The notes under the pieces were generated by a model. The model was not told the DNA's origin and did not search any database. It worked only from the letters and a program-made list of their open reading frames with translations. From assembly GCA_035479795.1 (NCBI GenBank), contig DATIII010000002.1, positions 84,034 to 148,033 on the forward strand: 64,000 bases of DNA. Direction: 5' to 3'. The stretch is from Candidatus Saccharimonadales bacterium (GTDB taxonomy: Bacteria > Patescibacteriota > Saccharimonadia > UBA4664 > SCTI01). The position numbers and the translations under genes are program-made. Of this stretch, positions 3,756 to 61,540 are shown in pieces. Numbering within the stretch: the first letter of the stretch is position 1; each line of letters begins with the position of its first letter.

Positions 3756-4970
3756 TCATAGCCACTCCCCTCCATAATATTCTTGCAGCGCCTTAGGTAG
3801 ACGAACCTTCCCGTCCTTCGTTTGATGATTTTCAATGATAGCAATCAGAGTTCGGCTGATAGCCGCGGCCGTCGCGTTTAGTGTGTGCACGGCTATTGTA
3901 CCGTCTTCCGTACGGGTGCGAATTCCCAAACGACGAGCCTGGTAGTCAGTACAGTTTGAGGCGCTAGTTAACTCTCGGTAGCTACCATCCACCGGGCTCC
4001 AATACTCAACATCGTATTTTTGGTAATGGGGAGCGCCCATGTCACCAGCAGCGGTGCGGGTGACTCTATAGGGGATCTCTAAATGCTGGCAAATATCTTC
4101 TTCGAGTTTAACTAATTTCTGCAGCCAATCGTCGCTGTCCTGCGGCGCACAGAAAACATAGAGTTCGAGCTTATTAAACTGGTGGACCCGGTAGAGTCCC
4201 TTTGAGTGCTTGCCATACGCCCCGGCCTCACGACGATACGACGGGCTCCAGCCGACATACAACTTTGGCAGGCCTTCGAGAATCTCGTCAGCATGATAGC
4301 CCGTTAGTGGGATCTCGGCGGTGGCGATCAGGTGCAAATCTTCCCCCTGTAGACTATAAACCTGCTCCTCTGGCCCCCTAGGGTTAAACCCAGTTCCTGT
4401 AGCAATGCGTTCGCTCACCATATGCGGGACATCCATCGGCACAAATCCGGCCTTCTCCGCCAGCTCGATGCCTAGACGCTTGATTGCCATCTCGAGTTTC
4501 ACAGCATTGCCCTTCAGATAGTAGAACTTACTCCCGGCTACCTTGGCACCACGCTCAAAGTCGATCAAATCGTGCTCTTCCATGAAAGCGACATGATCTT
4601 TAGCATCACCTTTTTCGGCCTCACCCCAGACGCGCTCCTCCTGGTTAGATTCTTCACCGCCTTCGGGTGTATCCGAAGCCATAAGATTGGGAACCTGACT
4701 GATCAACTCATTAAAATCGCTCTCCAATTTACTGAGTTTCTTTTCCGCCACCTCTAATTCGCCCTTTACCACCTGGAGTTTCTTCAACTCAGCTGCTGAT
4801 GGCTTGCCTTTGACGTTAAGCTGGGCGCGCAAGTCGTCCACCTCGCCCACCAGCTTAGTGCGCTGCTTATCAATCTCTAGGAGTTTGTCGATATCAACCT
4901 TGGTGCCACGCAGCTTAGCTGACTGCTTATACTTATCGGGATTGGCGCGTAGGTCTTTAATATCAATCAT
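3756..4970 (-). CDS. serS: Seryl-tRNA synthetase
   Basis: 404 aa. MIDIKDLRANPD N-terminal coiled-coil arm followed by a class II catalytic core. Confidence 0.95.
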   Translation of the reverse strand: MIDIKDLRANPDKYKQSAKLRGTKVDIDKLLEIDKQRTKLVGEVDDLRAQLNVKGKPSAAELKKLQVVKGELEVAEKKLSKLESDFNELISQVPNLMASDTPEGGEESNQEERVWGEAEKGDAKDHVAFMEEHDLIDFERGAKVAGSKFYYLKGNAVKLEMAIKRLGIELAEKAGFVPMDVPHMVSERIATGTGFNPRGPEEQVYSLQGEDLHLIATAEIPLTGYHADEILEGLPKLYVGWSPSYRREAGAYGKHSKGLYRVHQFNKLELYVFCAPQDSDDWLQKLVKLEEDICQHLEIPYRVTRTAAGDMGAPHYQKYDVEYWSPVDGSYRELTSASNCTDYQARRLGIRTRTEDGTIAVHTLNATAAAISRTLIAIIENHQTKDGKVRLPKALQEYYGGEWL

Positions 4971-16183: not shown

Positions 16184-16789
16184 TTAAGAGCTAGCTCCCA
16201 GCTCGAGACGGGAAAATTGCCTAATAACCACGTTCTCACCCACCTTGGCGCTGACTTCAGTAGTTAAAGCTTCAATGGTTTTGTCCGGGTCCTTCACAAA
16301 CGGCTGCCGACTCAAGCAAACGGTCTCATAATACTTATCAATCTTGCCATTCACAATCTTGAGCTTGATGTCATCGGGCTTTTCGCCGGCTGGCGAATTG
16401 ACAAGCTCGCCATAAAACATTTCCTTTTCCTTCGAAACCACATCCTCAGGAACACTCTCTGGATTTAAATATTCAGGATCGGTCGCCGCAATGTGCATGG
16501 CAATGTCTTTAGCAAAGTTTTTGAAGTCTTCCGTCCGCGCCACAAAGTCGGTTTCGCAGTTAACCTCTACCAACACACCAATCTTTTCACCGTGGACGTA
16601 GGAGGCCACGACGCCGTTACGAGCCTCGCGGTCGGCACGTTTGGCCGCCTGGGCGGCACCCTTTTTACGCAGTACTTCCATGGCCTGCTCCATGTTGCCA
16701 TCAGTTTCCACTAAGGCCTTTTTGGCATCCATCATGCCAGCGCCGGTGCGCTCACGCAGAGTTTTAACGTCTTCGATTGTAAAGCTCAT
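16184..16789 (-). CDS. tsf: Elongation factor Ts (short form)
   Basis: 201 aa. N-terminal UBA-like LRERTGAGMMDAKKAL. Confidence 0.9.
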   Translation of the reverse strand: MSFTIEDVKTLRERTGAGMMDAKKALVETDGNMEQAMEVLRKKGAAQAAKRADREARNGVVASYVHGEKIGVLVEVNCETDFVARTEDFKNFAKDIAMHIAATDPEYLNPESVPEDVVSKEKEMFYGELVNSPAGEKPDDIKLKIVNGKIDKYYETVCLSRQPFVKDPDKTIEALTTEVSAKVGENVVIRQFSRLELGASS

Positions 16790-17538
16790 TACTTTCCCTC
16801 TTTTTCGTTTTCTTGGTCTTCAGAAATTTTCTCTTCATGCGCCTTTTTAGCATACTCGGCAGCGCCACCTGTAGCGGCTTCGGCAATGGCATGGGTAATT
16901 ACGCGGATCGACTTAATAGCGTCGTCGTTAGCTGGGATCGGATAGGTAATCATATCCGGGTCCGCATTGGTATCGGCCACCCCAATAACCGGGATGCCCA
17001 GTGTCCGGGCCTCGTTAATGGCAATGTCGTCACGAACGGCGTCCACTACAAACACAGCGGCCGGGGCCTCGTCCATATTCTTAATGCCACCGAAGATCCG
17101 ATTCAGGTCTTTGGCTTCGTTAGAAAGATCCAGCACTTCCTTTTTGTTGTACTTAGAAGCAAAGTCGCCGCTTTCTAATCCGGACTCAAGATCCTTGAGC
17201 CGGCGGACACGGGTTTGGATAGTGCGGAAGTTGGTCAGCATGCCGCCTAGCCAACGCTCGGTAACGTAAGGCATACCAGCCTTTTCGGCCTCGTCTTTAA
17301 TAATCGACTGGGCCTGGCGCTTGGTGCCGACAAACAAGATCTTTCCGCCATCAGCCGTAACGGCGTGGGCGAACTTAACCGCATCTTGCAGGTAATTGAT
17401 CGTCTTGGTCAGGTCAATAATGTGGACGCCACCACGAATACCAAAAATGAACTGGTTCATTTTAGGGTTCCAACGCCGGGTTTGGTGGCCAAAGTGCGAG
17501 CCGGCCTCCAATAGCTCTTTTACAGATGTATCTGCCAT
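16789..17538 (-). CDS. rpsB: 30S ribosomal protein S2
   Basis: 249 aa. LLEAGSHFGHQTRRWNPKM. AAGGAGA RBS upstream of the ATG. Confidence 0.95.
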   Translation of the reverse strand: MADTSVKELLEAGSHFGHQTRRWNPKMNQFIFGIRGGVHIIDLTKTINYLQDAVKFAHAVTADGGKILFVGTKRQAQSIIKDEAEKAGMPYVTERWLGGMLTNFRTIQTRVRRLKDLESGLESGDFASKYNKKEVLDLSNEAKDLNRIFGGIKNMDEAPAAVFVVDAVRDDIAINEARTLGIPVIGVADTNADPDMITYPIPANDDAIKSIRVITHAIAEAATGGAAEYAKKAHEEKISEDQENEKEGK

Positions 17539-17641
17539 ATGTCTCCTTTTACTTCATCTCGACTGCCCAGTTGGGAGGATTTATTGCCAAGACTGATTCG
17601 TTCATTGATTTGACCTTGGTACTTTAACAGATTAGAACAGG

Positions 17642-17670
17642 TTGCACAAGTACCGCTTCAGGAGTATTAT
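17642..17670 (+). promoter_or_regulatory. Sigma70-like promoter (TTGCAC-17nt-TATTAT) for island-1 gene A
   Basis: The hexamers and spacing were read directly. A ~30-nt leader carrying GGAGGAG ends at the ATG at 17702. Confidence 0.5.
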
Positions 17671-17701
17671 CACGGGGCTTACAAGTGCACCTGGAGGAGA
17701 A

Positions 17702-18046
17702 ATGAAACAGTTGGAAGTTTGCCGCGTCTACGTTGACGCGCATGTAGCTGGCTGCCAGGTCGTCGTCAACCCCGGAGAAGAGAACCTGAAGGTCCTTGAG
17801 CCGAGCAGACTCTTCCCCATTGGGCTCAACCGCTACTTGGCATGGGAAACCGCTGATCACGACGACGACACCGGAGAAGCGTGGGTCTACGTATTTCACC
17901 ACCGCTACGACCATGATGGCGACGAGTGGCTGGTCCATGAAAACTCTCTCCGCGTCGTCGATGAGGATGCCAAGTTCCAGCTCTTCTACGACTGGGACCC
18001 TGGCTGCGCGATCAGCGAGAATCCAAACTGGAAGCGCCTTAGCTGA
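17702..18046 (+). CDS. Hypothetical small acidic protein, paralog A (GC-rich module 1)
   Basis: GGAGGAG RBS. 115 aa. Shares the CRV and LPxxxLPxGxNxYxAW segments with the next ORF. The plus strand is preferred over the antisense ORFs because of the RBS and the more protein-like composition. Confidence 0.55.
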   Translation: MKQLEVCRVYVDAHVAGCQVVVNPGEENLKVLEPSRLFPIGLNRYLAWETADHDDDTGEAWVYVFHHRYDHDGDEWLVHENSLRVVDEDAKFQLFYDWDPGCAISENPNWKRLS

Positions 18047-18073
18047 CATTCATACAACCAAGAAAGGACCGTC

Positions 18074-18433
18074 TTGCGCTATTTCTGGCTTTGCAGGGTA
18101 AGCGTGCTCTTCGACCCGCCCAAGGGCATTGGCCCGCACGTGATGTTTGCAACCGGACAGCCGTCCGACTACGACGACGGTCCGGCCCTCCCCGAGCGCT
18201 CCATCCTGCCGGTCGGAGGAGACAACTACGTGGCCTGGGACTTCAACGACCTGGGCGCCGGCCTGGTACTGTTCAATCTGGTACTTGCGGCCGGTCAAGA
18301 CCCGCGAGTACATGCCGGGCCGATCGTAACCCAAGACGGTGAGTTCGAACTGGTGCTCGGCCAGCACACCCCTGTCGGCGGCCGGCAAAACTCCAACCTG
18401 CGCCGGCCCGAGTGGCGGGTTGTTGATGAATGA
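18074..18433 (+). CDS. Hypothetical small protein, paralog B (GC-rich module 1; TTG start)
   Basis: AAAGGA lies 7 nt upstream of the TTG. 119 aa, alignable with paralog A (LCRVSV.../...[12 protein letters not shown]). Confidence 0.5.
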
Positions 18434-18440
18434 CCACGCC

Positions 18441-18472
18441 CCCGCGGCCCCCCGCTGCGGGGGCCGCGGGGT
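18441..18472 (+). terminator. Very stable GC-only hairpin (13-bp perfect stem) directly after paralog B stop; U-tail-less terminator/insulator
   Basis: CCCCGCGGCCCCC cgctgc GGGGGCCGCGGGG, read directly. Confidence 0.55.
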
Positions 18473-18489
18473 TCAGCCGATCACATGGC

Positions 18490-18518
18490 TTGATAGATCT
18501 GTAATTATCTGCTATATT
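18490..18518 (+). promoter_or_regulatory. Sigma70-like promoter (TTGATA-17nt-TATATT) for rpmE, giving a near-leaderless transcript
   Basis: The -10 hexamer ends 9 nt before the rpmE ATG. Confidence 0.5.
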
Positions 18519-18527
18519 GGTTCGGTT

Positions 18528-18902
18528 ATGAAAACCGGAATTCACCCCGAATTGAAGACCACCAAAGTCCACTGCAACGGCTGCGGCACTGATTTTGAAA
18601 CGGCCGCCACTGTGGATTCTATTACCGTGGAAATTTGCTCTAACTGTCATCCGTTCTACACGGGTAAGCAGAAGCTGGTTGATACCGCTGGTCGGGTTGA
18701 GAAGTTCCGAGCTCGGGCCGAGGCCGCTTCTAAGGCTAAGTCAGCCAAAAAGGCCAAGCCAGCCAAAAATGAAGATGCCGAAGTCGTAGAAGACAACAAG
18801 CCAGCCAATGATCCGGAAATGAAAGAAATTGCCCAGGAGTTCAAGGCTGAAACAGTAGACATGCCAGCAGCTGATTCTGACGCCGAAACTACTGAATCTT
18901 AA
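18528..18902 (+). CDS. rpmE: 50S ribosomal protein L31 (Zn-binding type) with ~55-aa Lys/Ala/Glu-rich C-terminal extension
   Basis: MKTGIHPEL with CNGCG and CSNCH cysteine pairs. The ORF runs to 124 aa. Confidence 0.9.
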
Positions 18903-18956
18903 CTAATTCACAAGGAAACGCTCTGATACAATTGTCATGAGCGTTTTTTGTTACTT

Positions 18957-26638: not shown

Positions 26639-27412
26639 TTAGAGTGCCACTGGCTCGGCGATCACCACGACTCGCTTGGTTTGAGCCTTGTCACTGCATG
26701 TGTAGATGGTGATATGGGGCTTAGTGGAATCGGATTTCAGAATGGAAGTCTCGGTACTAACCACCGTCTTTACCTGTGAAATCGTGTAAATTAGACGTTT
26801 GCCGCGCCAATCCACCACCACGGTGTCGCCATTTGAAAGTTTGTCGAGATTGTAAAGTGTGGAAGTATTGGGTGGTAAGAAGCGCCAGCGATGGCCAGCC
26901 AGTACAAAGTTACCATCAGCCATATTGCCAGTTTGGTGCCACACCCCCTCTTCTTTATCGAGAATCTTCAGGCTCGGGCCCTCTAAAATCGCCGTACTTA
27001 CGCCAATTTTGGGAATAATTAGTCGGTTGCCCGCGATATTGGCCTTGGGGTTATTGGCGCCAACCGGCTGAGACTGTAGGACATCGCCAGCCCGCGCCTG
27101 GTAGTCAGTTTTATGTAGCTGGTAGTCCAACTCGGGCAGCCAAGGGTAGACAAACAGTATGGCCGATACGGCGAACATTAGGGCAAAACCGATTGACAGT
27201 AAGGAGCGCCACCGCGACAACCGACTGCGACCATTAATCACCTTAAAATAAGTGCTACCGCCAGAAGTCGCCGCATTGATCGGGCTGCGTCTGCAGATAC
27301 CCCGGCGCGTGTCGCAGCGGTAAATGTAGCGTTCATCAGCCCAATGTTTATCAGGATTAAACTTAGAGGGCTTGGTGATTTGCCGGCCCAGTTCGGGCTT
27401 AGCGGAGCGCAC
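26639..27412 (-). CDS. Sortase family transpeptidase
   Basis: VLAGHR (His), ITIYTCS (TLxTC catalytic Cys) and an N-terminal membrane anchor. Confidence 0.85.
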   Translation of the reverse strand: MRSAKPELGRQITKPSKFNPDKHWADERYIYRCDTRRGICRRSPINAATSGGSTYFKVINGRSRLSRWRSLLSIGFALMFAVSAILFVYPWLPELDYQLHKTDYQARAGDVLQSQPVGANNPKANIAGNRLIIPKIGVSTAILEGPSLKILDKEEGVWHQTGNMADGNFVLAGHRWRFLPPNTSTLYNLDKLSNGDTVVVDWRGKRLIYTISQVKTVVSTETSILKSDSTKPHITIYTCSDKAQTKRVVVIAEPVAL

Positions 27413-28719
27413 CCTGACGCCTCGTCAGGATAAAACCGATGGTTGCCACCAGCATCATGCAGAGAGCAAGGACTGAGTGCGGCCAGTCTCCAGTCGGCGC
27501 TAGCTTTTTCGCCGTGGAATCGGTGGATGTTGACGGGGTCGGTGTCGAACTCACAGCAGCGGCGGGGTTCATCGTCAAGGTTAACGCGAGGGTTGGACTG
27601 GCATTACCGGCGGCGTCAGTAGCAACGATCGAAAGATTATGTTGGCCATTAGGAATGTCTTGATCCGGAGTGGCGGACCATGCACCGGTGGCGTCAACCG
27701 TAGCCGTAAGCTTGATATTCTCCGGCGAAACCATAATTGCTACCTTTGAACCCGCTTCGGCCTTACCGCTGAAGACCGGCCGATTAGCACCGCTAATGCT
27801 GGCTGTACTTCCTGAAACTTTATTATCTCCCACCTTTCCAACCGTTGGGGCGGAAGGAGCCAAGCTATCCACACTAAAGGCGGCGGCTTTATCGTCGCCA
27901 ACCGTTAGCCAATCGCCAGCTTTATCACCCTTGGTGACGCGAATCTGCCAGTGATAGCTCCCATCGACAATACCGGCCTGGGTGACTGACACATCCAAAT
28001 CGTGGCCGCCGGCCTTCACTGCGGCTCCCTTGGTAGTGGCCTCCCCGGTAAATGCTTGGCCCATCGGCCGGACTTCGATTTCCGGTACGACTGCGCCGGT
28101 GTTGGCTGATGTCGCCAGAGTGGCATGGAATGATAGGTCATGATCTTTGGCAGCGCCCCCTAGACTAATCTCGCCACTCGAAGCTACCAAGCGGGGATCT
28201 TTCAGAGTGCCAACTTCAATTTCCTTGGGGATAGGGCTCTCGGGCGACTGGGCTGATTGATCGCTATTGCGCTGAGTGAAATACCACCAAGCGCCACCAC
28301 CGAGCAAAAGTACAATTATGGCGGCCAGGATAATCCAGCGACCATTGCCTCCTCTTTTTGGTGGCACAATGGGAACCTCAGGAGCGGGCTTTGGCTCGGG
28401 AGTGACAGAAGAGCCGTTTTTCTCGGGATCATGGTCCTTGTCATCCTTCACACTGCCCGAATCCGCTAAGACCGTCGGTCCGGCGGCGGGAGCTGGACCG
28501 GCCCCAGCGGGCTCGGCCGGCTGGGGCGCTGGTGCAGCCGCAGCCGTGGTCTTGGCGACGGATACATAATCGGAAGCCAGCCGGGGCGAAGCCGCCGGTC
28601 CGGCGGTTATTGAACCGGCACCGTAAGAGCCTCCAACCTTTTGGTTAGAGCCTGAATTATGTAATAAGTCCATCCTGGGATTATTGGTCGGGTTGCTCCC
28701 CGCCGATATTGGATCCATC
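27399..28719 (-). CDS. Cell-surface protein with C-terminal LAPTG sorting signal (candidate sortase substrate)
   Basis: C-terminus is KKLAPTG, then a hydrophobic segment, then RRQGALR. Start set at MDPIS, with GGGTGAGG upstream. An internal transmembrane helix sits near residue 130. Confidence 0.75.
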
Positions 28720-28786
28720 CTCACCCTTTTAAGCTGATTACATGATACCTGTAAGCACAAGCGTAATGCAAGTTCAGACATCAAAA

Positions 28787-33966: not shown

Positions 33967-34000
33967 AAGGGCTGGGTACGCTTTCGCGCACCCAGCCCTT
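33967..34000 (-). terminator. Terminator hairpin downstream of nrdJ (11-bp perfect stem)
   Basis: AAGGGCTGGGT ...12 nt... ACCCAGCCCTT, read directly. Confidence 0.65.
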
Positions 34001-34011
34001 GGTTTGCGGTA

Positions 34012-36858
34012 TTAGCCGCAGCCGGTGTTGTTACCACAGCTGTTGCAGGTGTAGCACGAGCCCGTCCGCTGCATCATGCCGCCGCACTGGCTGCAGGCCG
34101 GACCCAGCTCCAGGCCGGGCAGGCTGTGGTTGCCATTGCTGGGGGCGGCCGTGATGGACGAACCCATCTCGGCGGTCTCGTTGGCCTTGACCTCGGACGG
34201 CACCTCGGAGGGCGCCACCTCGGTCACCTTCATCTCGCCGGCCGCACCATCGACGAGGGTGGTCTCGGCCAGCTCGGGGATCTGAATACCCAGAGCCTCC
34301 ATGTGCTCGGGCTCGTGCCGCATGTAACGCGACGCCAGCCAGCGCATGATGTAGTCAGGCATGGACTTGGCGAACGGGATCTCCGGGTTGCGGGTAATCC
34401 CCTCTGGCTCGAACTTCATGTGCGAGAACTTGTACACCAGCGTCTCGAGCGGCACCCCGTACTGGAGCGCGATCGAAATCGCCGTGGCAAAGGAGTTCAT
34501 CATCCCCCGCAAGGTCGATCCCTCCTTGCCAATGTCGGTGAGGAAGATCTCCCCAACGGTGCCGTCCTCGTACAAGCCGGCGGTGATGTACCACTCGAAC
34601 CCGGCCACCTCGGCCTTGTGCGTCAGCGACTGCCGCTCCTTGGGCATGCGGTTGCGACGCGGGCCGGCCTCAGCGATGGCCTTGGCCACGATGGCCTCGA
34701 CATCGCTGGGGGTGTAGGCGGCCTTGGCCGCCTGCTTCTTGCCCCCGACGGTGACGTAGGCCTGGGCGGCCTTGGAGCCGTCGACGTAGAGTGCCAGGGC
34801 CTTGACCCCGTGCTTCCACGCCTGGATGTAGGCGTCCATCACGTCCTCGGCGGTGGCCTTCGCAGGGAGGTTGACCGTCTTGGAAATGGCGCCAGAGATG
34901 AAGGGCTGAACCGACCCCATCATCTTGATGTGCCCCATGTGGCTGATCGCCCGCGCCCCAACCGCAACGTCGAACACCGGGAGATGGTCGTCGGACAGGT
35001 GCGGCGCATCGGACAGGTCACCCTTGGCATCGAGGTGCTCGAGGATCTCGTCGATGTGATTCGACTTGTACCCCAAGCTCTCCAGAGCCGGCCGAACCGA
35101 CTGATTGACCATCTTGATCCGGCCGCCGCCCACTAGGTCCTTGAGCTTCACCAAGGAGAAGTCGGGCTCGACGCCGGTGGTGTCGCAATCCATCAGGAAC
35201 GAGATCGTCCCCGTCGGCGCTAGCACCGTGGCCTGGGCGTTGCGGTAGCCATTGATCTCGCCCTCGGCGACCGCTGCTTCCCAGTCCTCCTGGGCTGCAG
35301 CCAGCAGCATGGAGTCCGAGCAGTGCTCGATCTCGCGGCTGGCGTCGCGATGCATGCGCATCACGTTGTTGTGTGGCTCGCGGTTCTCCTCGTAGCGGTC
35401 GTAGGGGCCGACAGCCTCAGCGAACCGCGCCGAGTTGAGGTAGGCCCGTCCGGTCATCAGCGCCGTGATAGCGGCAGCCAGCCCGCGACCCTCGTCGGAG
35501 TCATAGGGCAGGCCGCTCTGCATCAGGTAGGCGCCAAGATCGGCGTAGCCGAGACCAAGCTGCCGGAAAGCCCGTGCGTTGTCCCCGATCTTCTCGGTGG
35601 GATAGCTGGACGGGCCAACGATGATCTCCTGCGCCAGGTAGACGATGTCGACGACGTGGCGCATGGTTGCGACGTCGAACGTGCCATCCGGAAGCCGAAA
35701 CTTGGTCAGACGCAGCGAGGCCAGGTTGCAAGCCGAATCGTCGACATGCATGTACTCGCTGCACGGGTTCGAGGCGTTGATGCGCCCCGAGTTCGGGCAG
35801 GTGTGCCACTGGTTGATGATGGTGTCGAACTGAATGCCGGGGTCAGCGCAGCGCCAGGCTGCGTCGGCCACCGCCACCATCAGCTCGCGAGCCGTCATCG
35901 GCTGACCCGTCTCCGGATCGACCACGTCATGCTGTGAGCCGTCGATCCGCCACCGGACTTGCCAGGGCGCCGTCTCCCCACCCTCCACCAGCGACATGAA
36001 GTCGTCGGTGACGCGGATGGAGTTGTTGGCATTCTGGAAGGGCACCCGCCAGCGATCCTTGCCGTCGACGGACACGTCGTAGCCGAGCGCGTCCAGCTCC
36101 TTGGCAAAGTCCTCAGCATCCGCCTTGCAGCGGGCAAAATGGAGGATGTCCGGATGGTCGACCTCTAGGACAACCATCTTGGCGGCCCGGCGGGTCTTGC
36201 CACCGGACTTGATGACCCCGGCCCAGGCGTCAGCGCCGAGCATGAAGGACACTGGGCCCGAAGCGGTGCCGCCCTTACTGAGCGGCTCCATCGACCCACG
36301 GATCTTCGACAGGTTGATGCCGGAACCCGACCCACCTCGGAAGATCTTCCCCTCCTGGGTGTTCCAGAAGAGGATGTCGTCCATCTCGTCCTCTGTTGAG
36401 AGGATGAAGCAAGCCGAGCACTGCGGCTGCTCCTCGAATCCGACGTTGAACCAGACAGGGCTGTTGAAGGCCGCATACTGGTGGAGCAGGATGTGGGTCA
36501 ACTCGTCGCGAAAGGCGTTGCCGTCTTCCTCGGTCGCGAAGTAACCCAGCTCCTGACCCCAAGCGGCGATCGTGCCGGCAACGCGGCCGATCATCTGCTT
36601 GACGCTGTTCTCGCGCGCCGGCTTATCCAGCTGGCCGCGGAAGTACTTCTGCGACACAATGTTGGTCGCGGTCAAGCTCCAGGTCTTGGGGAACTCGACA
36701 TTCTTCTGCTTGAAGCTGGGGTTGTCAGGATCGCCGATCAGCGCCGTCCGCTTCTCCCACTCGACAGAGTCGAAGGGGTCGGCACCAGGCGTCGTGAAAA
36801 CGCGGCGGACCACCAGACCAGAGTCCTGATCCAGGCGCTGCTGCATGGTTCCAGCCAT
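34012..36858 (-). CDS. nrdJ: Class II (adenosylcobalamin-dependent) ribonucleotide reductase
   Basis: 948 aa with a class II RNR core and a C-terminal Cys-rich tail (CSQCGG...CYTCNSCG). Clearly GC-richer than its neighbours, with long antisense ORFs. Confidence 0.92.
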   Translation of the reverse strand: MAGTMQQRLDQDSGLVVRRVFTTPGADPFDSVEWEKRTALIGDPDNPSFKQKNVEFPKTWSLTATNIVSQKYFRGQLDKPARENSVKQMIGRVAGTIAAWGQELGYFATEEDGNAFRDELTHILLHQYAAFNSPVWFNVGFEEQPQCSACFILSTEDEMDDILFWNTQEGKIFRGGSGSGINLSKIRGSMEPLSKGGTASGPVSFMLGADAWAGVIKSGGKTRRAAKMVVLEVDHPDILHFARCKADAEDFAKELDALGYDVSVDGKDRWRVPFQNANNSIRVTDDFMSLVEGGETAPWQVRWRIDGSQHDVVDPETGQPMTARELMVAVADAAWRCADPGIQFDTIINQWHTCPNSGRINASNPCSEYMHVDDSACNLASLRLTKFRLPDGTFDVATMRHVVDIVYLAQEIIVGPSSYPTEKIGDNARAFRQLGLGYADLGAYLMQSGLPYDSDEGRGLAAAITALMTGRAYLNSARFAEAVGPYDRYEENREPHNNVMRMHRDASREIEHCSDSMLLAAAQEDWEAAVAEGEINGYRNAQATVLAPTGTISFLMDCDTTGVEPDFSLVKLKDLVGGGRIKMVNQSVRPALESLGYKSNHIDEILEHLDAKGDLSDAPHLSDDHLPVFDVAVGARAISHMGHIKMMGSVQPFISGAISKTVNLPAKATAEDVMDAYIQAWKHGVKALALYVDGSKAAQAYVTVGGKKQAAKAAYTPSDVEAIVAKAIAEAGPRRNRMPKERQSLTHKAEVAGFEWYITAGLYEDGTVGEIFLTDIGKEGSTLRGMMNSFATAISIALQYGVPLETLVYKFSHMKFEPEGITRNPEIPFAKSMPDYIMRWLASRYMRHEPEHMEALGIQIPELAETTLVDGAAGEMKVTEVAPSEVPSEVKANETAEMGSSITAAPSNGNHSLPGLELGPACSQCGGMMQRTGSCYTCNSCGNNTGCG

Positions 36859-37070: not shown

Positions 37071-37553
37071 TTAAACCTGCCCGAGACTGCGGGATTTTAG
37101 CTTGGCTACCTCCGCTTCAAAGCTTTCAATGTCGGCAAATGAGCGATACACACTGGCAAACCGTACGTAAGCCACATCGTCCAAGCCCATCAACTTGGTC
37201 ATTACAATCTCGCCGACTTTGGCCGCTGGAATCTCCGCCTCGCCGATGGCCCGGACCTCTCGCTCGATTTCATCAATGACTTCCTCGATCCGGCCAATCG
37301 AAATCGGGCGCTTTTCAGTAGCCCGGTACAGGCCACCCGCCACCTTTTGACGATTAAACGGCTCACGGCGGCCGTCCTTTTTAACTATGGCCACACTCGG
37401 CCGTTCCAGCCGCTCATAGGTTGTAAAGCGCAGACCACACTTAAGACACTGCCGACGCCGGCGAATTGATGCCCCCTCTTCTAAGTCACGTGACTCGATG
37501 ACCTTAGAGTCTAAATATTCACACTCGTGACACTTCACGTGCTTCCCCCACAT
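37071..37553 (-). CDS. nrdR: Transcriptional repressor NrdR (Zn-ribbon + ATP-cone)
   Basis: VKCHECEYLDSKVIESR Zn ribbon and SIRRRRQC. The start could be the ATG at 37553 or a GTG 15 nt downstream. Confidence 0.9.
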   Translation of the reverse strand: MWGKHVKCHECEYLDSKVIESRDLEEGASIRRRRQCLKCGLRFTTYERLERPSVAIVKKDGRREPFNRQKVAGGLYRATEKRPISIGRIEEVIDEIEREVRAIGEAEIPAAKVGEIVMTKLMGLDDVAYVRFASVYRSFADIESFEAEVAKLKSRSLGQV

Positions 37554-59702: not shown

Positions 59703-59735
59703 CTGCCCCAGGAACCTCCTTGGTTCCTGGGGCAG
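59703..59735. terminator. 14-bp perfect-stem hairpin between convergent ABC exporter and module-3 operon
   Basis: CTGCCCCAGGAACC tcctt GGTTCCTGGGGCAG, read directly. No U-run on the plus strand and a weak one on the minus strand. Confidence 0.6.
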
Positions 59736-59759
59736 CTGGATACAACTCCCGTTGGGTGG

Positions 59760-60380
59760 CTAGCCGCCGAGCTTCTGCAGCTTGGCCAGGAAGCCCGACT
59801 TGGGCTTCGGGGCCGGGTCGCCTGCCGGCCGGGACCGGATGGGTTCCGGCTCGGGCTCGACTGCCCTCCGGGGCCGAGCCGCAGGGGGCGGCTCCGTCGT
59901 CCGGATGTCGTCGAGGATCAGGCGCTGCCGCGGGCCGCGAAGGCGGTCTGCGATTTCAGCATCCTCCCGAGCGCGACGACTGCGTTCTGCCTCAAGCGAG
60001 GCGTGCTGGTCCTCCAACCTAATGAGCTCAGCTTCGAGCTCATTGAAGGTCCGTGTCGCAGCGATAGCCGCATTCTCGGCGGCCGCCACCTCTTCCCGCT
60101 TTGAGAGAATCCTCTCGCGCAGGCTTGGAGCCGGAGCGGGATCAGCCGCCGGGGCGGCCGGCGTGACGAACGCGAAATCCGCTCCGGGGAAAGCCGGAGC
60201 TGCAGCCACGGGAGCCGGCCCAGGTGTCGGTGCGGCAGCCGGAGCGGGCTCCGGCTGGGCGGCCACAGGGGCCGCAGCGGGTGCCGAAGCCCCCGAGTCG
60301 TTGTCGGGCACAGGGATGGAAACGGCAGCGTCTGCTGTCGCCTCGGCCTCGGCCACGATCGCTTCGATGTCGCTCGACAT
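59760..60380 (-). CDS. Hypothetical Ala/Pro-rich protein with central coiled coil (module 3, second gene)
   Basis: AGGAGGG RBS 4 nt upstream of the ATG. 206 aa. Low-complexity AP-rich N-terminal half, then a REEVAAAENA...LEAELIRLEDQHASLEAE coiled coil. Confidence 0.5.
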   Translation of the reverse strand: MSSDIEAIVAEAEATADAAVSIPVPDNDSGASAPAAAPVAAQPEPAPAAAPTPGPAPVAAAPAFPGADFAFVTPAAPAADPAPAPSLRERILSKREEVAAAENAAIAATRTFNELEAELIRLEDQHASLEAERSRRAREDAEIADRLRGPRQRLILDDIRTTEPPPAARPRRAVEPEPEPIRSRPAGDPAPKPKSGFLAKLQKLGG

Positions 60381-60388
60381 CAGCCCTC

Positions 60389-61318
60389 CTAGTCGTTGAC
60401 CAGCAGGCCGAGTTCAGCCCGCTTCTCGTTTTTCAGGATCTCCGCCCTGGCCTTGATTTCCCTGGCCTTGGCGGGGTACTTCGCGATCTGGCCGGCAATG
60501 GCCAGATCGAACTCCTTGACCCACTCCACGAACGCCTCCTTGCGGGCGACGTGCTTGGGATGGGTCTCGAGGTGCTGAGCCACGAGCCGCACCAGAAGGT
60601 ACGGCACATCCGCGATGCCCGACACCAGGTTCTCCCAGATGTCGGAACGAGAGTCGAAGAACGCATCTTCGCTCTCAAACCGCGGATCGCCGCAGATGAT
60701 GCACCTCGACGAGGCGCTCGCGGCAAACGACAACTGGCCCATGAGCCGGATGCGTGCGTTGAGGCAATCCCGGCAAAAACGCGGGAAAGGCGACGTGCGC
60801 ACATCCTTGCGCTGACCGCGCCTGCGAACATCCCGAGGATTGGCGATCACGTTGTGATCGCACACCCCGAGGTATTCGTAGTAGCCCTGCTGGCTCTCCT
60901 GGGCCATCGAGACCTTGGGATCGGGCGGGTTCCAGGTCGGCAGCGCCGCCTGATCCGTCTCCACCTGCTGATCGATGTCCATGAGAAGCGTCAGGTCCTG
61001 GCGAACGATCGCCTCCAGCTCGGGGTCGATCTCGGTCGAGCCGTTGACCTTCCCCTGCCGGCGAAGTGCCGGATAGGCAGTGGCGAAGTACACGGGCTTG
61101 ATGCCCCTGAGCCCTTGCGCCACGAAGCCACCCAGCAGCTTGTCGATTGTGACCTTCCGAGAAGCCTCGGACTCCAGCTTCGCGAACTCTTCGGGAGAGA
61201 TCTTGGAGCCCTCCTTCAAGCCCGAGCGCTCGAGAATGTCAGCCATCTGCTCGATGGTCAGCCCCACATCAGGGGCCACCTTGCGAGCCAGACGGTTTCC
61301 GGTTGCCGTGGTCGGCAT
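60389..61318 (-). CDS. Hypothetical 310-aa protein with Cys cluster (CDHN...CRDC...CIIC; putative zinc ribbon) (module 3, first gene)
   Basis: Start at MPTTATGN, with GGAGG 6 nt upstream. The Cys spacing was read directly. I do not recognise a family. Confidence 0.5.
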   Translation of the reverse strand: MPTTATGNRLARKVAPDVGLTIEQMADILERSGLKEGSKISPEEFAKLESEASRKVTIDKLLGGFVAQGLRGIKPVYFATAYPALRRQGKVNGSTEIDPELEAIVRQDLTLLMDIDQQVETDQAALPTWNPPDPKVSMAQESQQGYYEYLGVCDHNVIANPRDVRRRGQRKDVRTSPFPRFCRDCLNARIRLMGQLSFAASASSRCIICGDPRFESEDAFFDSRSDIWENLVSGIADVPYLLVRLVAQHLETHPKHVARKEAFVEWVKEFDLAIAGQIAKYPAKAREIKARAEILKNEKRAELGLLVND

Positions 61319-61540
61319 TGAACCTCCAGGTTGGAGAGAGATTCGCCAGTCGTAGGTCGGCGACACCTTCTAGGGATCGCCTTCCGGCGACGGGTTACTA
61401 CTCGTCTCTTAGAGGAGACGACCGGTTACAGCATGTTTCGGGTGTGTATCCAAGGCCTTTTAAGGGCCTTTGGGTACGAAACTTTATCTAGATTTCAAAC
61501 TCCAACAGATGAGAAATGGGTTCCTCAAGTGCAATGGAGT

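Follow-up and report, generated by a model that had tools for sequence, protein, structure and literature searches.

What kind of DNA lies between the genes for ribosomal proteins S2 and L31 in a Candidatus Saccharimonadales metagenome-assembled genome (MAG) from soil? The two genes, rpsB and rpmE, are divergent and separated by 989 bp, and the locus under study is a GC-rich segment within this gap (positions 17642-18472 of the window, i.e., of the whole 64-kb stretch of DNA that was analysed). A preliminary description of this segment (hereafter, the module) regarded it as two tandem paralogous genes with a promoter and a GC-rich hairpin of their own and suggested that it could be an immunity or anti-defence array. 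It is considered moderately probable that the module is a real, foreign, protein-coding cassette read from the plus strand, which carries the open reading frames (ORFs) ORF1 and ORF2. The evidence comes from base composition, from the corresponding loci of related genomes and from comparison of the two ORFs with each other.

Composition and insertion of the module

The composition of the insert is foreign, and the claim that it differs from the rest of the window was borne out by all three kinds of measurement. The GC content of 17702-18472 was 61.5% (57.1% for ORF1 and 66.4% for ORF2 plus the hairpin), as against 44% and 40% in the immediate flanks and 53.1 ± 4.0% in the window. When 771-bp windows were slid along the sequence, a GC content of 61.5% was reached nowhere outside the module and two other GC-rich islands. 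The GC content at third codon positions (GC3) was 0.728 for ORF1 and 0.756 for ORF2, compared with 0.592 ± 0.060 for 48 long ORFs, which placed both in the top 2-4% of long ORFs. The tetranucleotide distance of the module to native DNA was 0.036, about 4 standard deviations beyond that of native pieces (0.0253 ± 0.0026). Its tetranucleotide profile was nearer to that of the GC islands (0.0309), and such behaviour was found in only 0.8% of native pieces.

Loci encoding relatives of RpsB were drawn from 185,579 species-representative genomes and are designated here by L numbers. The divergent order of rpsB and rpmE-prfA was kept across Saccharimonadales. In the closest relative, L001, whose RpsB, PrfA and L31 are 71%, 77% and 64% identical to those encoded in the window, the start codons of rpsB and rpmE are 175 bp apart. 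Both flanks of the module could be aligned with this locus, the left one up to position 17632 (CGTTCATTGATTTGACCT..TAACAGA) and the right one, comprising the rpmE promoter and start, from about 18490, the alignment on the right being partly manual. The insertion bracketed in this way measures about 810-860 bp. Because the gap of L001 is 175 bp long and both flanks are alignable, it may be concluded that the module is a lineage-specific insertion, as had been proposed; L001 carries neither the insert nor homologues of its ORFs at this site. The gap is similarly short (183-208 bp) in L010, L017, L021 and L042.

In other Saccharimonadales, the gap holds other sequences. ORFs of 177 and 184 amino acids (aa) that look LuxR-like by eye were found in L007 (4289-4822) and L019 (3193-3747), a 154-aa acidic ORF in L020 (4393-4857), and segments of 2.3-2.4 kb in L025, L047 and L075. 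No similarity to ORF1 or ORF2 was detected when the gap-filling ORFs of other Saccharimonadales were compared with them. Since unrelated genes occupy the same gap in different lineages, the rpsB-rpmE gap is a variable, recurrent insertion spot. At the ends of the insert, neither terminal inverted repeats nor target-site duplications were found, the only matches being at chance level and inside the ORFs.

The order rpsB-ORF1-ORF2-rpmE recurs, at 100% identity, in a second NCBI assembly as well as in Logan assemblies of two separate runs. Therefore, it is not an assembly artefact.

Coding strand and paralogy of ORF1 and ORF2

Base composition was non-uniform over codon positions in both ORFs (chi-square p = 1.5e-12 for ORF1 and 2.7e-7 for ORF2), and the only stop-free frames were frame 0 and its exact antisense, the remaining frames holding 2-7 stop codons. 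Therefore, this DNA is, or recently was, protein-coding in that register. As had been described, both strands are open: the minus strand contains ORFs of 141 and 112 aa, co-directional with rpsB, in the order 112 aa and then 141 aa, which abut each other as TGA-ATG.

The claim of tandem divergent paralogues was supported by comparison of the plus-strand translations. BLASTP aligned ORF1 and ORF2 over their full length and collinearly (E = 1e-4, 23% identity), and their Smith-Waterman score of 46 exceeded that of shuffled sequences (26.8 ± 4.6; z = 4.1), in which it was reached in 9 of 2000 cases. The shared motifs are M-x5-CRV-x-V, then L-x6-P-[IV]-G-x3-Y-[LV]-A-W-[DE] and finally F-[QE]-L; the CRV segment and the central block of the preliminary description were thus recovered, the common pattern being looser than had been noted. 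No similarity between ORF1 and ORF2 was found at the DNA level. Considering that the similarity exists at the protein level and not at the DNA level, the duplication is old and has been preserved as protein. ORF1 and ORF2 thus appear to be divergent paralogues, by a sequence signal that is real but modest.

This similarity also bears on the choice of strand. It was confined to the plus-strand frame, for which z was 4.1 versus -0.8 and 0.4 for the antisense translations; over the antisense and shifted frames together, z ranged from -0.8 to 1.4. The two minus-strand ORFs gave no BLASTP match to each other, and a protein search with the two concatenated yielded neither homologues nor a self-match, so that they show no sign of being the conserved frames. 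Shine-Dalgarno sites precede both plus-strand ORFs and are poor or absent for the minus-strand ORFs, and the GC hairpin comes after the stop codon of ORF2. Moreover, the 141-aa ORF would end inside a conserved native block (at 17624-17632), and two independent annotations pick the plus-strand ORFs. Together, these features support the plus-strand ORFs as the better coding candidates.

The length of 119 aa given earlier for ORF2 was correct; ORF1 has 114 aa, not the 115 aa first reported. In the NCBI annotation, ORF2 (VLF21_01060) begins at Met24 and has 96 aa. The upstream TTG start is supported by the alignment with ORF1, which begins at residue 1 (M-x5-CRV). Both predicted products are small and acidic, as had been claimed, and no signal peptide or membrane segment was evident by eye in either of them.

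Searches for relatives, flanking elements and other islands

It was demonstrated that ORF1 and ORF2 form a family without detectable members elsewhere. When each was searched against 5.8 billion clustered proteins, only self-matches were obtained. A two-sequence ORF1/ORF2 profile, run with full HMMER against 1.84 billion representatives, returned the self-matches and two repeat proteins, both of which were rejected. One of them (P0003, DUF285/BspA-like) carries a 15-residue motif, VGGKTYLAWDT, in eight copies that score 4-7 bits each, so that its total is inflated by the repeats. The other (P0004), with Big_13 bacterial Ig-like repeats, scored -2.7 to 9 bits per repeat and reached a probability of 8% in hhalign.

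The statement that the proteins match no named family held across Pfam, NCBIfam, PADLOC, PHROGs and PDB. For ORF1 and ORF2, no Pfam family was found at E ≤ 1 and no helix-turn-helix (HTH) match was obtained, and sequence searches of NCBIfam and PDB gave nothing significant. PADLOC returned no family for any of the four ORFs, plus-strand or minus-strand. In PHROGs, residues 39-68 of ORF2 matched phrog_16042, a family of unknown function, marginally (E = 0.008); this match was uncorroborated by ORF1 and is an unverified lead. Nothing was found for ORF1 or ORF2 in six-frame translations of phages (tblastn), nor in DNA and locus searches of phages, plasmids, viral contigs and metagenome contigs. 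Because the module looks foreign yet has no relatives, its donor was probably an unsampled organism or mobile element, or else the genes evolve very fast.

Structure prediction had been proposed as a check for a common fold. AlphaFold2 models built with the two-sequence alignment were mostly beta-strand (all-beta, at low confidence, for ORF1), with predicted local distance difference test (pLDDT) values of 43 and 47, and a Foldseek search of PDB with the ORF2 model gave no match below E = 1. Because of these low pLDDT values, neither the models nor the Foldseek search could be used.

The sigma-70-like promoter proposed for the module, TTGCAC-17-TATTAT, is present where it had been placed (Table 1), its strength being limited to a 9/12 consensus match. 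The promoter scan, which gave this score to the version TGCACA-16-TATTAT, counted 3 promoter-like sites in the region versus 0.8 ± 1.0 in shuffled sequences. On the opposite strand, rpsB would be transcribed from TTGTGC (17649-17644) and TAAAGT (17626-17621), separated by 17 nt; the corresponding candidate in L001 is TTGATT-17-TACAGT. The two promoter candidates would therefore stand back-to-back, with their -35 elements overlapping on the palindromic TTGCACAA. The conserved 34-nt block upstream of rpsB, within which the presumed -10 element TAAAGT falls, is probably an rpsB promoter or leader element. An Rfam scan of 17300-18700 found nothing.

At the other end of the module, the 76-nt stretch that holds the hairpin had a folding energy of -40.5 kcal/mol (z = -3.6). 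This hairpin is the second-longest perfect one in the 64 kb; the longest, of 14 bp (59703-59735), also lies at the edge of a GC-rich island. The tail of the module's hairpin is TTCAGCCGAT, with no U-tract, and this hairpin was not reported by the terminator scan; the native terminator of rpmE carries a T-run (about 18917-18950). The preliminary description of the hairpin was accurate as to its 13-bp all-GC stem, the missing U-tract and its position directly ahead of the rpmE promoter. The reading as a terminator is uncertain. This label is unproven because a U-tract is needed for intrinsic termination even by mycobacterial RNA polymerase (PMC3993855). The hairpin may act as a weak terminator or only stabilise the 3' end of the RNA. 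No further copies of it, and no shared repeats, were found among the GC islands.

The rpmE gene itself appears nearly leaderless both in the window and in L001 (4826-4860): 9 nt separate the end of its -10 element (TATATT; TACACT in L001) from the ATG, and neither genome has a Shine-Dalgarno site here. The encoded L31 has an acidic/Lys-rich C-terminal tail of about 55 aa that is common to L001. Automatic gene calls lengthen rpmE to 158 aa by starting at an ATG at 18426, which overlaps the ORF2 stop codon, and reading through the GC hairpin. This longer call is probably an annotation artefact, because the MKTGIHP start at 18528 agrees with that of the L001 orthologue and is preceded by a promoter-like site of its own.

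Table 1. Features of the module and its borders in the window.
Feature	Position	Strand	Details
rpsB (ribosomal protein S2)	16789-17538	-	Left neighbour; PF00318
Native left flank, 34-nt block upstream of rpsB	17599-17632		Nearly identical in L001 (L001 about 4915-4950); left limit of the insertion
Candidate sigma-70-like promoter, TTGCAC-17-TATTAT	17642-17670	+	-35 at 17642-17647, -10 at 17665-17670
Shine-Dalgarno site of ORF1, GGAGGAG	17693-17699	+	From sequence; 4-nt spacing after the core, as in rpsB (GGAG + 4 nt + ATG)
ORF1	17702-18046	+	114 aa; ATG start; isoelectric point 4.66; NCBI hypothetical protein VLF21_01055
Shine-Dalgarno-like site of ORF2, AAGGA	18064-18068	+	From sequence; 5 nt ahead of the TTG start
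ORF2	18074-18433	+	119 aa; TTG start; isoelectric point 4.85; apparent paralogue of ORF1
Hairpin, 13-bp all-GC stem and 6-nt loop, perfect	18440-18471	+	6 nt past the ORF2 stop codon; putative 3'-end/terminator element; right edge of the GC-rich DNA
Native right flank, rpmE promoter-like site TTGATA-17-TATATT	18490-18518 (flank 18490-18527)	+	10/12 match with upstream TG (extended); aligned by eye with L001
rpmE (ribosomal protein L31, Cys-containing type, long C-terminal tail)	18528-18902	+	Right neighbour; PF01197

The wider surroundings of the module are housekeeping genes, namely rseP, uppS, frr, tsf and rpsB on the minus strand and rpmE, prfA, prmC and an htrA-like gene on the plus strand.

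Other parts of the window are also GC-rich. The minus-strand gene nrdJ (34012-36858), encoding a 948-aa class II (B12-dependent) ribonucleotide reductase, has 64% GC and a GC3 of 0.87, far above the genome norm, and is clearly a GC-rich acquired gene. A GC hairpin at about 33970-34000 forms its end, and its neighbour nrdR (37071-37553, minus strand) is of native composition; the best phage match of nrdJ was only 43% identical. A second orphan island with 62-67% GC, at 59703-61366, has an ABC transporter gene on one side and rbfA/infB on the other, and the perfect 14-bp hairpin mentioned above marks its border. Its minus-strand ORFs, of 206 aa (Ala/Pro-rich) and 325 aa, had no Pfam match, and the 325-aa ORF had no phage match. 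In addition, a minus-strand gene (27399-28784) in a local patch of 61% GC encodes a protein of 461 aa, which contains Big_13 and Big_6 Ig-like domains and whose N-terminal part is Ala/Pro-rich.

Alternative explanations and known systems

The module is most likely a self-contained, horizontally acquired cassette, built like a phage moron and sitting in a chromosome. It forms a GC-rich foreign islet of about 830 bp, placed where the divergent promoters of rpsB and rpmE lie, and would have come by horizontal transfer from a high-GC donor that is still unsampled, or from that donor's mobile elements. Transcription would start at the sigma-70-like candidate back-to-back with the rpsB promoter and would pass through two Shine-Dalgarno-led genes. 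The GC hairpin would then serve as an insulating or 3'-end element that stops the transcript, or stabilises it, before the promoter of rpmE is reached. The products are small, acidic and probably beta-rich; from their size, their charge and the lack of a catalytic motif, it may be guessed that they act by binding another macromolecule and are not enzymes.

Several points weigh against a real, foreign, plus-strand cassette. Codon-usage likelihood, whether trained on native or on GC-island genes, barely separates sense from antisense, and GC content by codon position likewise has no power to do so. The paralogy signal is modest (p about 0.005), and AlphaFold gave no confident fold for either protein. 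Since no homologue was found anywhere, maintenance of the ORFs by selection has no backing from conservation, and dN/dS (the ratio of nonsynonymous to synonymous substitution rates) is not computable because the three assemblies are 100% identical. A recent, well-sampled high-GC donor, such as one of the Actinobacteria, would also be expected to leave homologues among 15 billion proteins, and none was found. As for the insertion, the lineage is poorly sampled and the timing depends on a single close relative, the only informative one; in L002 (64%) the site is covered by Ns, and a search of Joint Genome Institute (JGI) metagenomes for closer relatives with which to date the insertion found no RpsB above 58% identity. 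Loss in L001 instead of gain here is, formally, still conceivable. Finally, the promoter candidate of the cassette is only a 9/12 consensus match, and its hairpin lacks the U-tract that even the mycobacterial polymerase needs (PMC3993855).

Some of these points would fit neutral or decaying foreign DNA, i.e., a fragment of a high-GC donor with leftover codon periodicity that is neither expressed nor selected. In its favour, no homologue was found from which conservation could be judged, the codon-model log-likelihood ratio per codon is near 0, and the structure models are of low confidence. It is nevertheless rather unlikely, since neither ORF is interrupted over its 114 or 119 codons, both have Shine-Dalgarno sites and show paralogy from residue 1, and the promoter-like and hairpin elements still follow each other in the expected order. 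In addition, useless DNA tends to be lost when genomes are reduced, as they are in Saccharimonadales. That the minus-strand ORFs of 112 and 141 aa are the real genes is very improbable, even though both are open, point toward rpsB and have a codon-position GC pattern that is nearly as gene-like. They lack mutual similarity and homologues, are absent from database gene calls and are Val-rich, which is typical of the antisense of an acidic protein; to this are added the poor or absent Shine-Dalgarno sites and the end of the 141-aa ORF in native sequence. The abrupt GC jump in a sequence that comes from a MAG could likewise be ascribed to an assembly chimera or to contaminating read-through from a high-GC organism. 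This is hardly credible, given that both junctions recur at 100% identity in three further contigs from other assemblies or runs and that the insert lies inside a 162-kb contig.

The preliminary description had gone further and seen in the module an immunity-protein or anti-defence array, in which acidic paralogues would neutralise a toxin or a defence system, e.g., of the epibiont's high-GC host. Tandem divergent small paralogues are a common architecture of immunity and anti-defence genes, and here they are acidic and lie in foreign DNA. This layout is the only feature from which the proposal was drawn, and the proposal found no support: neither protein matched an immunity family of Pfam, a model of PADLOC or a functionally assigned PHROG, there was no phage, plasmid or viral match, and the neighbouring genes are housekeeping ones, among which no gene for a toxin, an integrase, an aca-like HTH protein or a phage product occurs. 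Such an array is therefore improbable. A more specific version, in which ORF1 and ORF2 represent a new family of small acidic binding proteins, taken by the epibiont from a high-GC host or its mobile elements and set beside strong ribosomal-protein promoters, where they neutralise a host-derived toxin or defence factor, is a long shot. If it were true, the module would be a host-interaction module specific to an episymbiotic lineage.

With the plus-strand cassette as the preferred explanation, the module would, if ORF1 and ORF2 are real and functional, be a further accessory module specific to one lineage in the reduced genome of an epibiont. The module, the GC-rich nrdJ and the second orphan island together point to a lineage that takes up DNA from high-GC donors and may hint at the identity of the host. 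Taken alone, the module is a pair of hypothetical proteins, whose main use would be to mark horizontal transfer and to supply candidates for expression studies.

Among known elements, the hairpin resembles the tail-less ("I-shaped") hairpins of high-GC bacteria in its long, perfect, all-GC stem right after a stop codon and in the lack of a U-tract; the role of such hairpins as intrinsic terminators is disputed (PMC3993855). Of the two parts of a canonical intrinsic terminator, it has the GC-rich stem and not the U-tract. With the immunity arrays of polymorphic toxins, the module shares tandem, divergent, small cytoplasmic paralogues, but it lacks a toxin gene or the remnant of a toxin cassette, matches no immunity family (Imm, SUKH and similar) and has only two copies. 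Similarly, Acr/Ard operons also consist of tandem small acidic proteins on foreign DNA, whereas the module has no recognisable mobile element, no HTH regulator and no sequence match to them.

The module is closer in type to horizontally acquired ORFan islets: it occupies a variable intergenic spot, its composition is atypical, and its short genes are restricted to one lineage and have no homologues. Whereas classical ORFans are in most cases richer in AT than their host, the module is rich in GC, a trait that it shares with the other islands of this genome. Phage morons, reportedly described by Hendrix and colleagues as autonomous promoter-gene-terminator cassettes between two prophage genes, offer a further parallel. 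Unlike them, the module lies in a cellular chromosome between ribosomal protein genes and not in a prophage, contains two genes instead of one, ends in a hairpin without a U-tract and has no phage homologues among those searched. Like them, it is a short insert between conserved neighbours, absent from relatives and unlike its flanks in composition, with a promoter-like site upstream and a stem-loop downstream.

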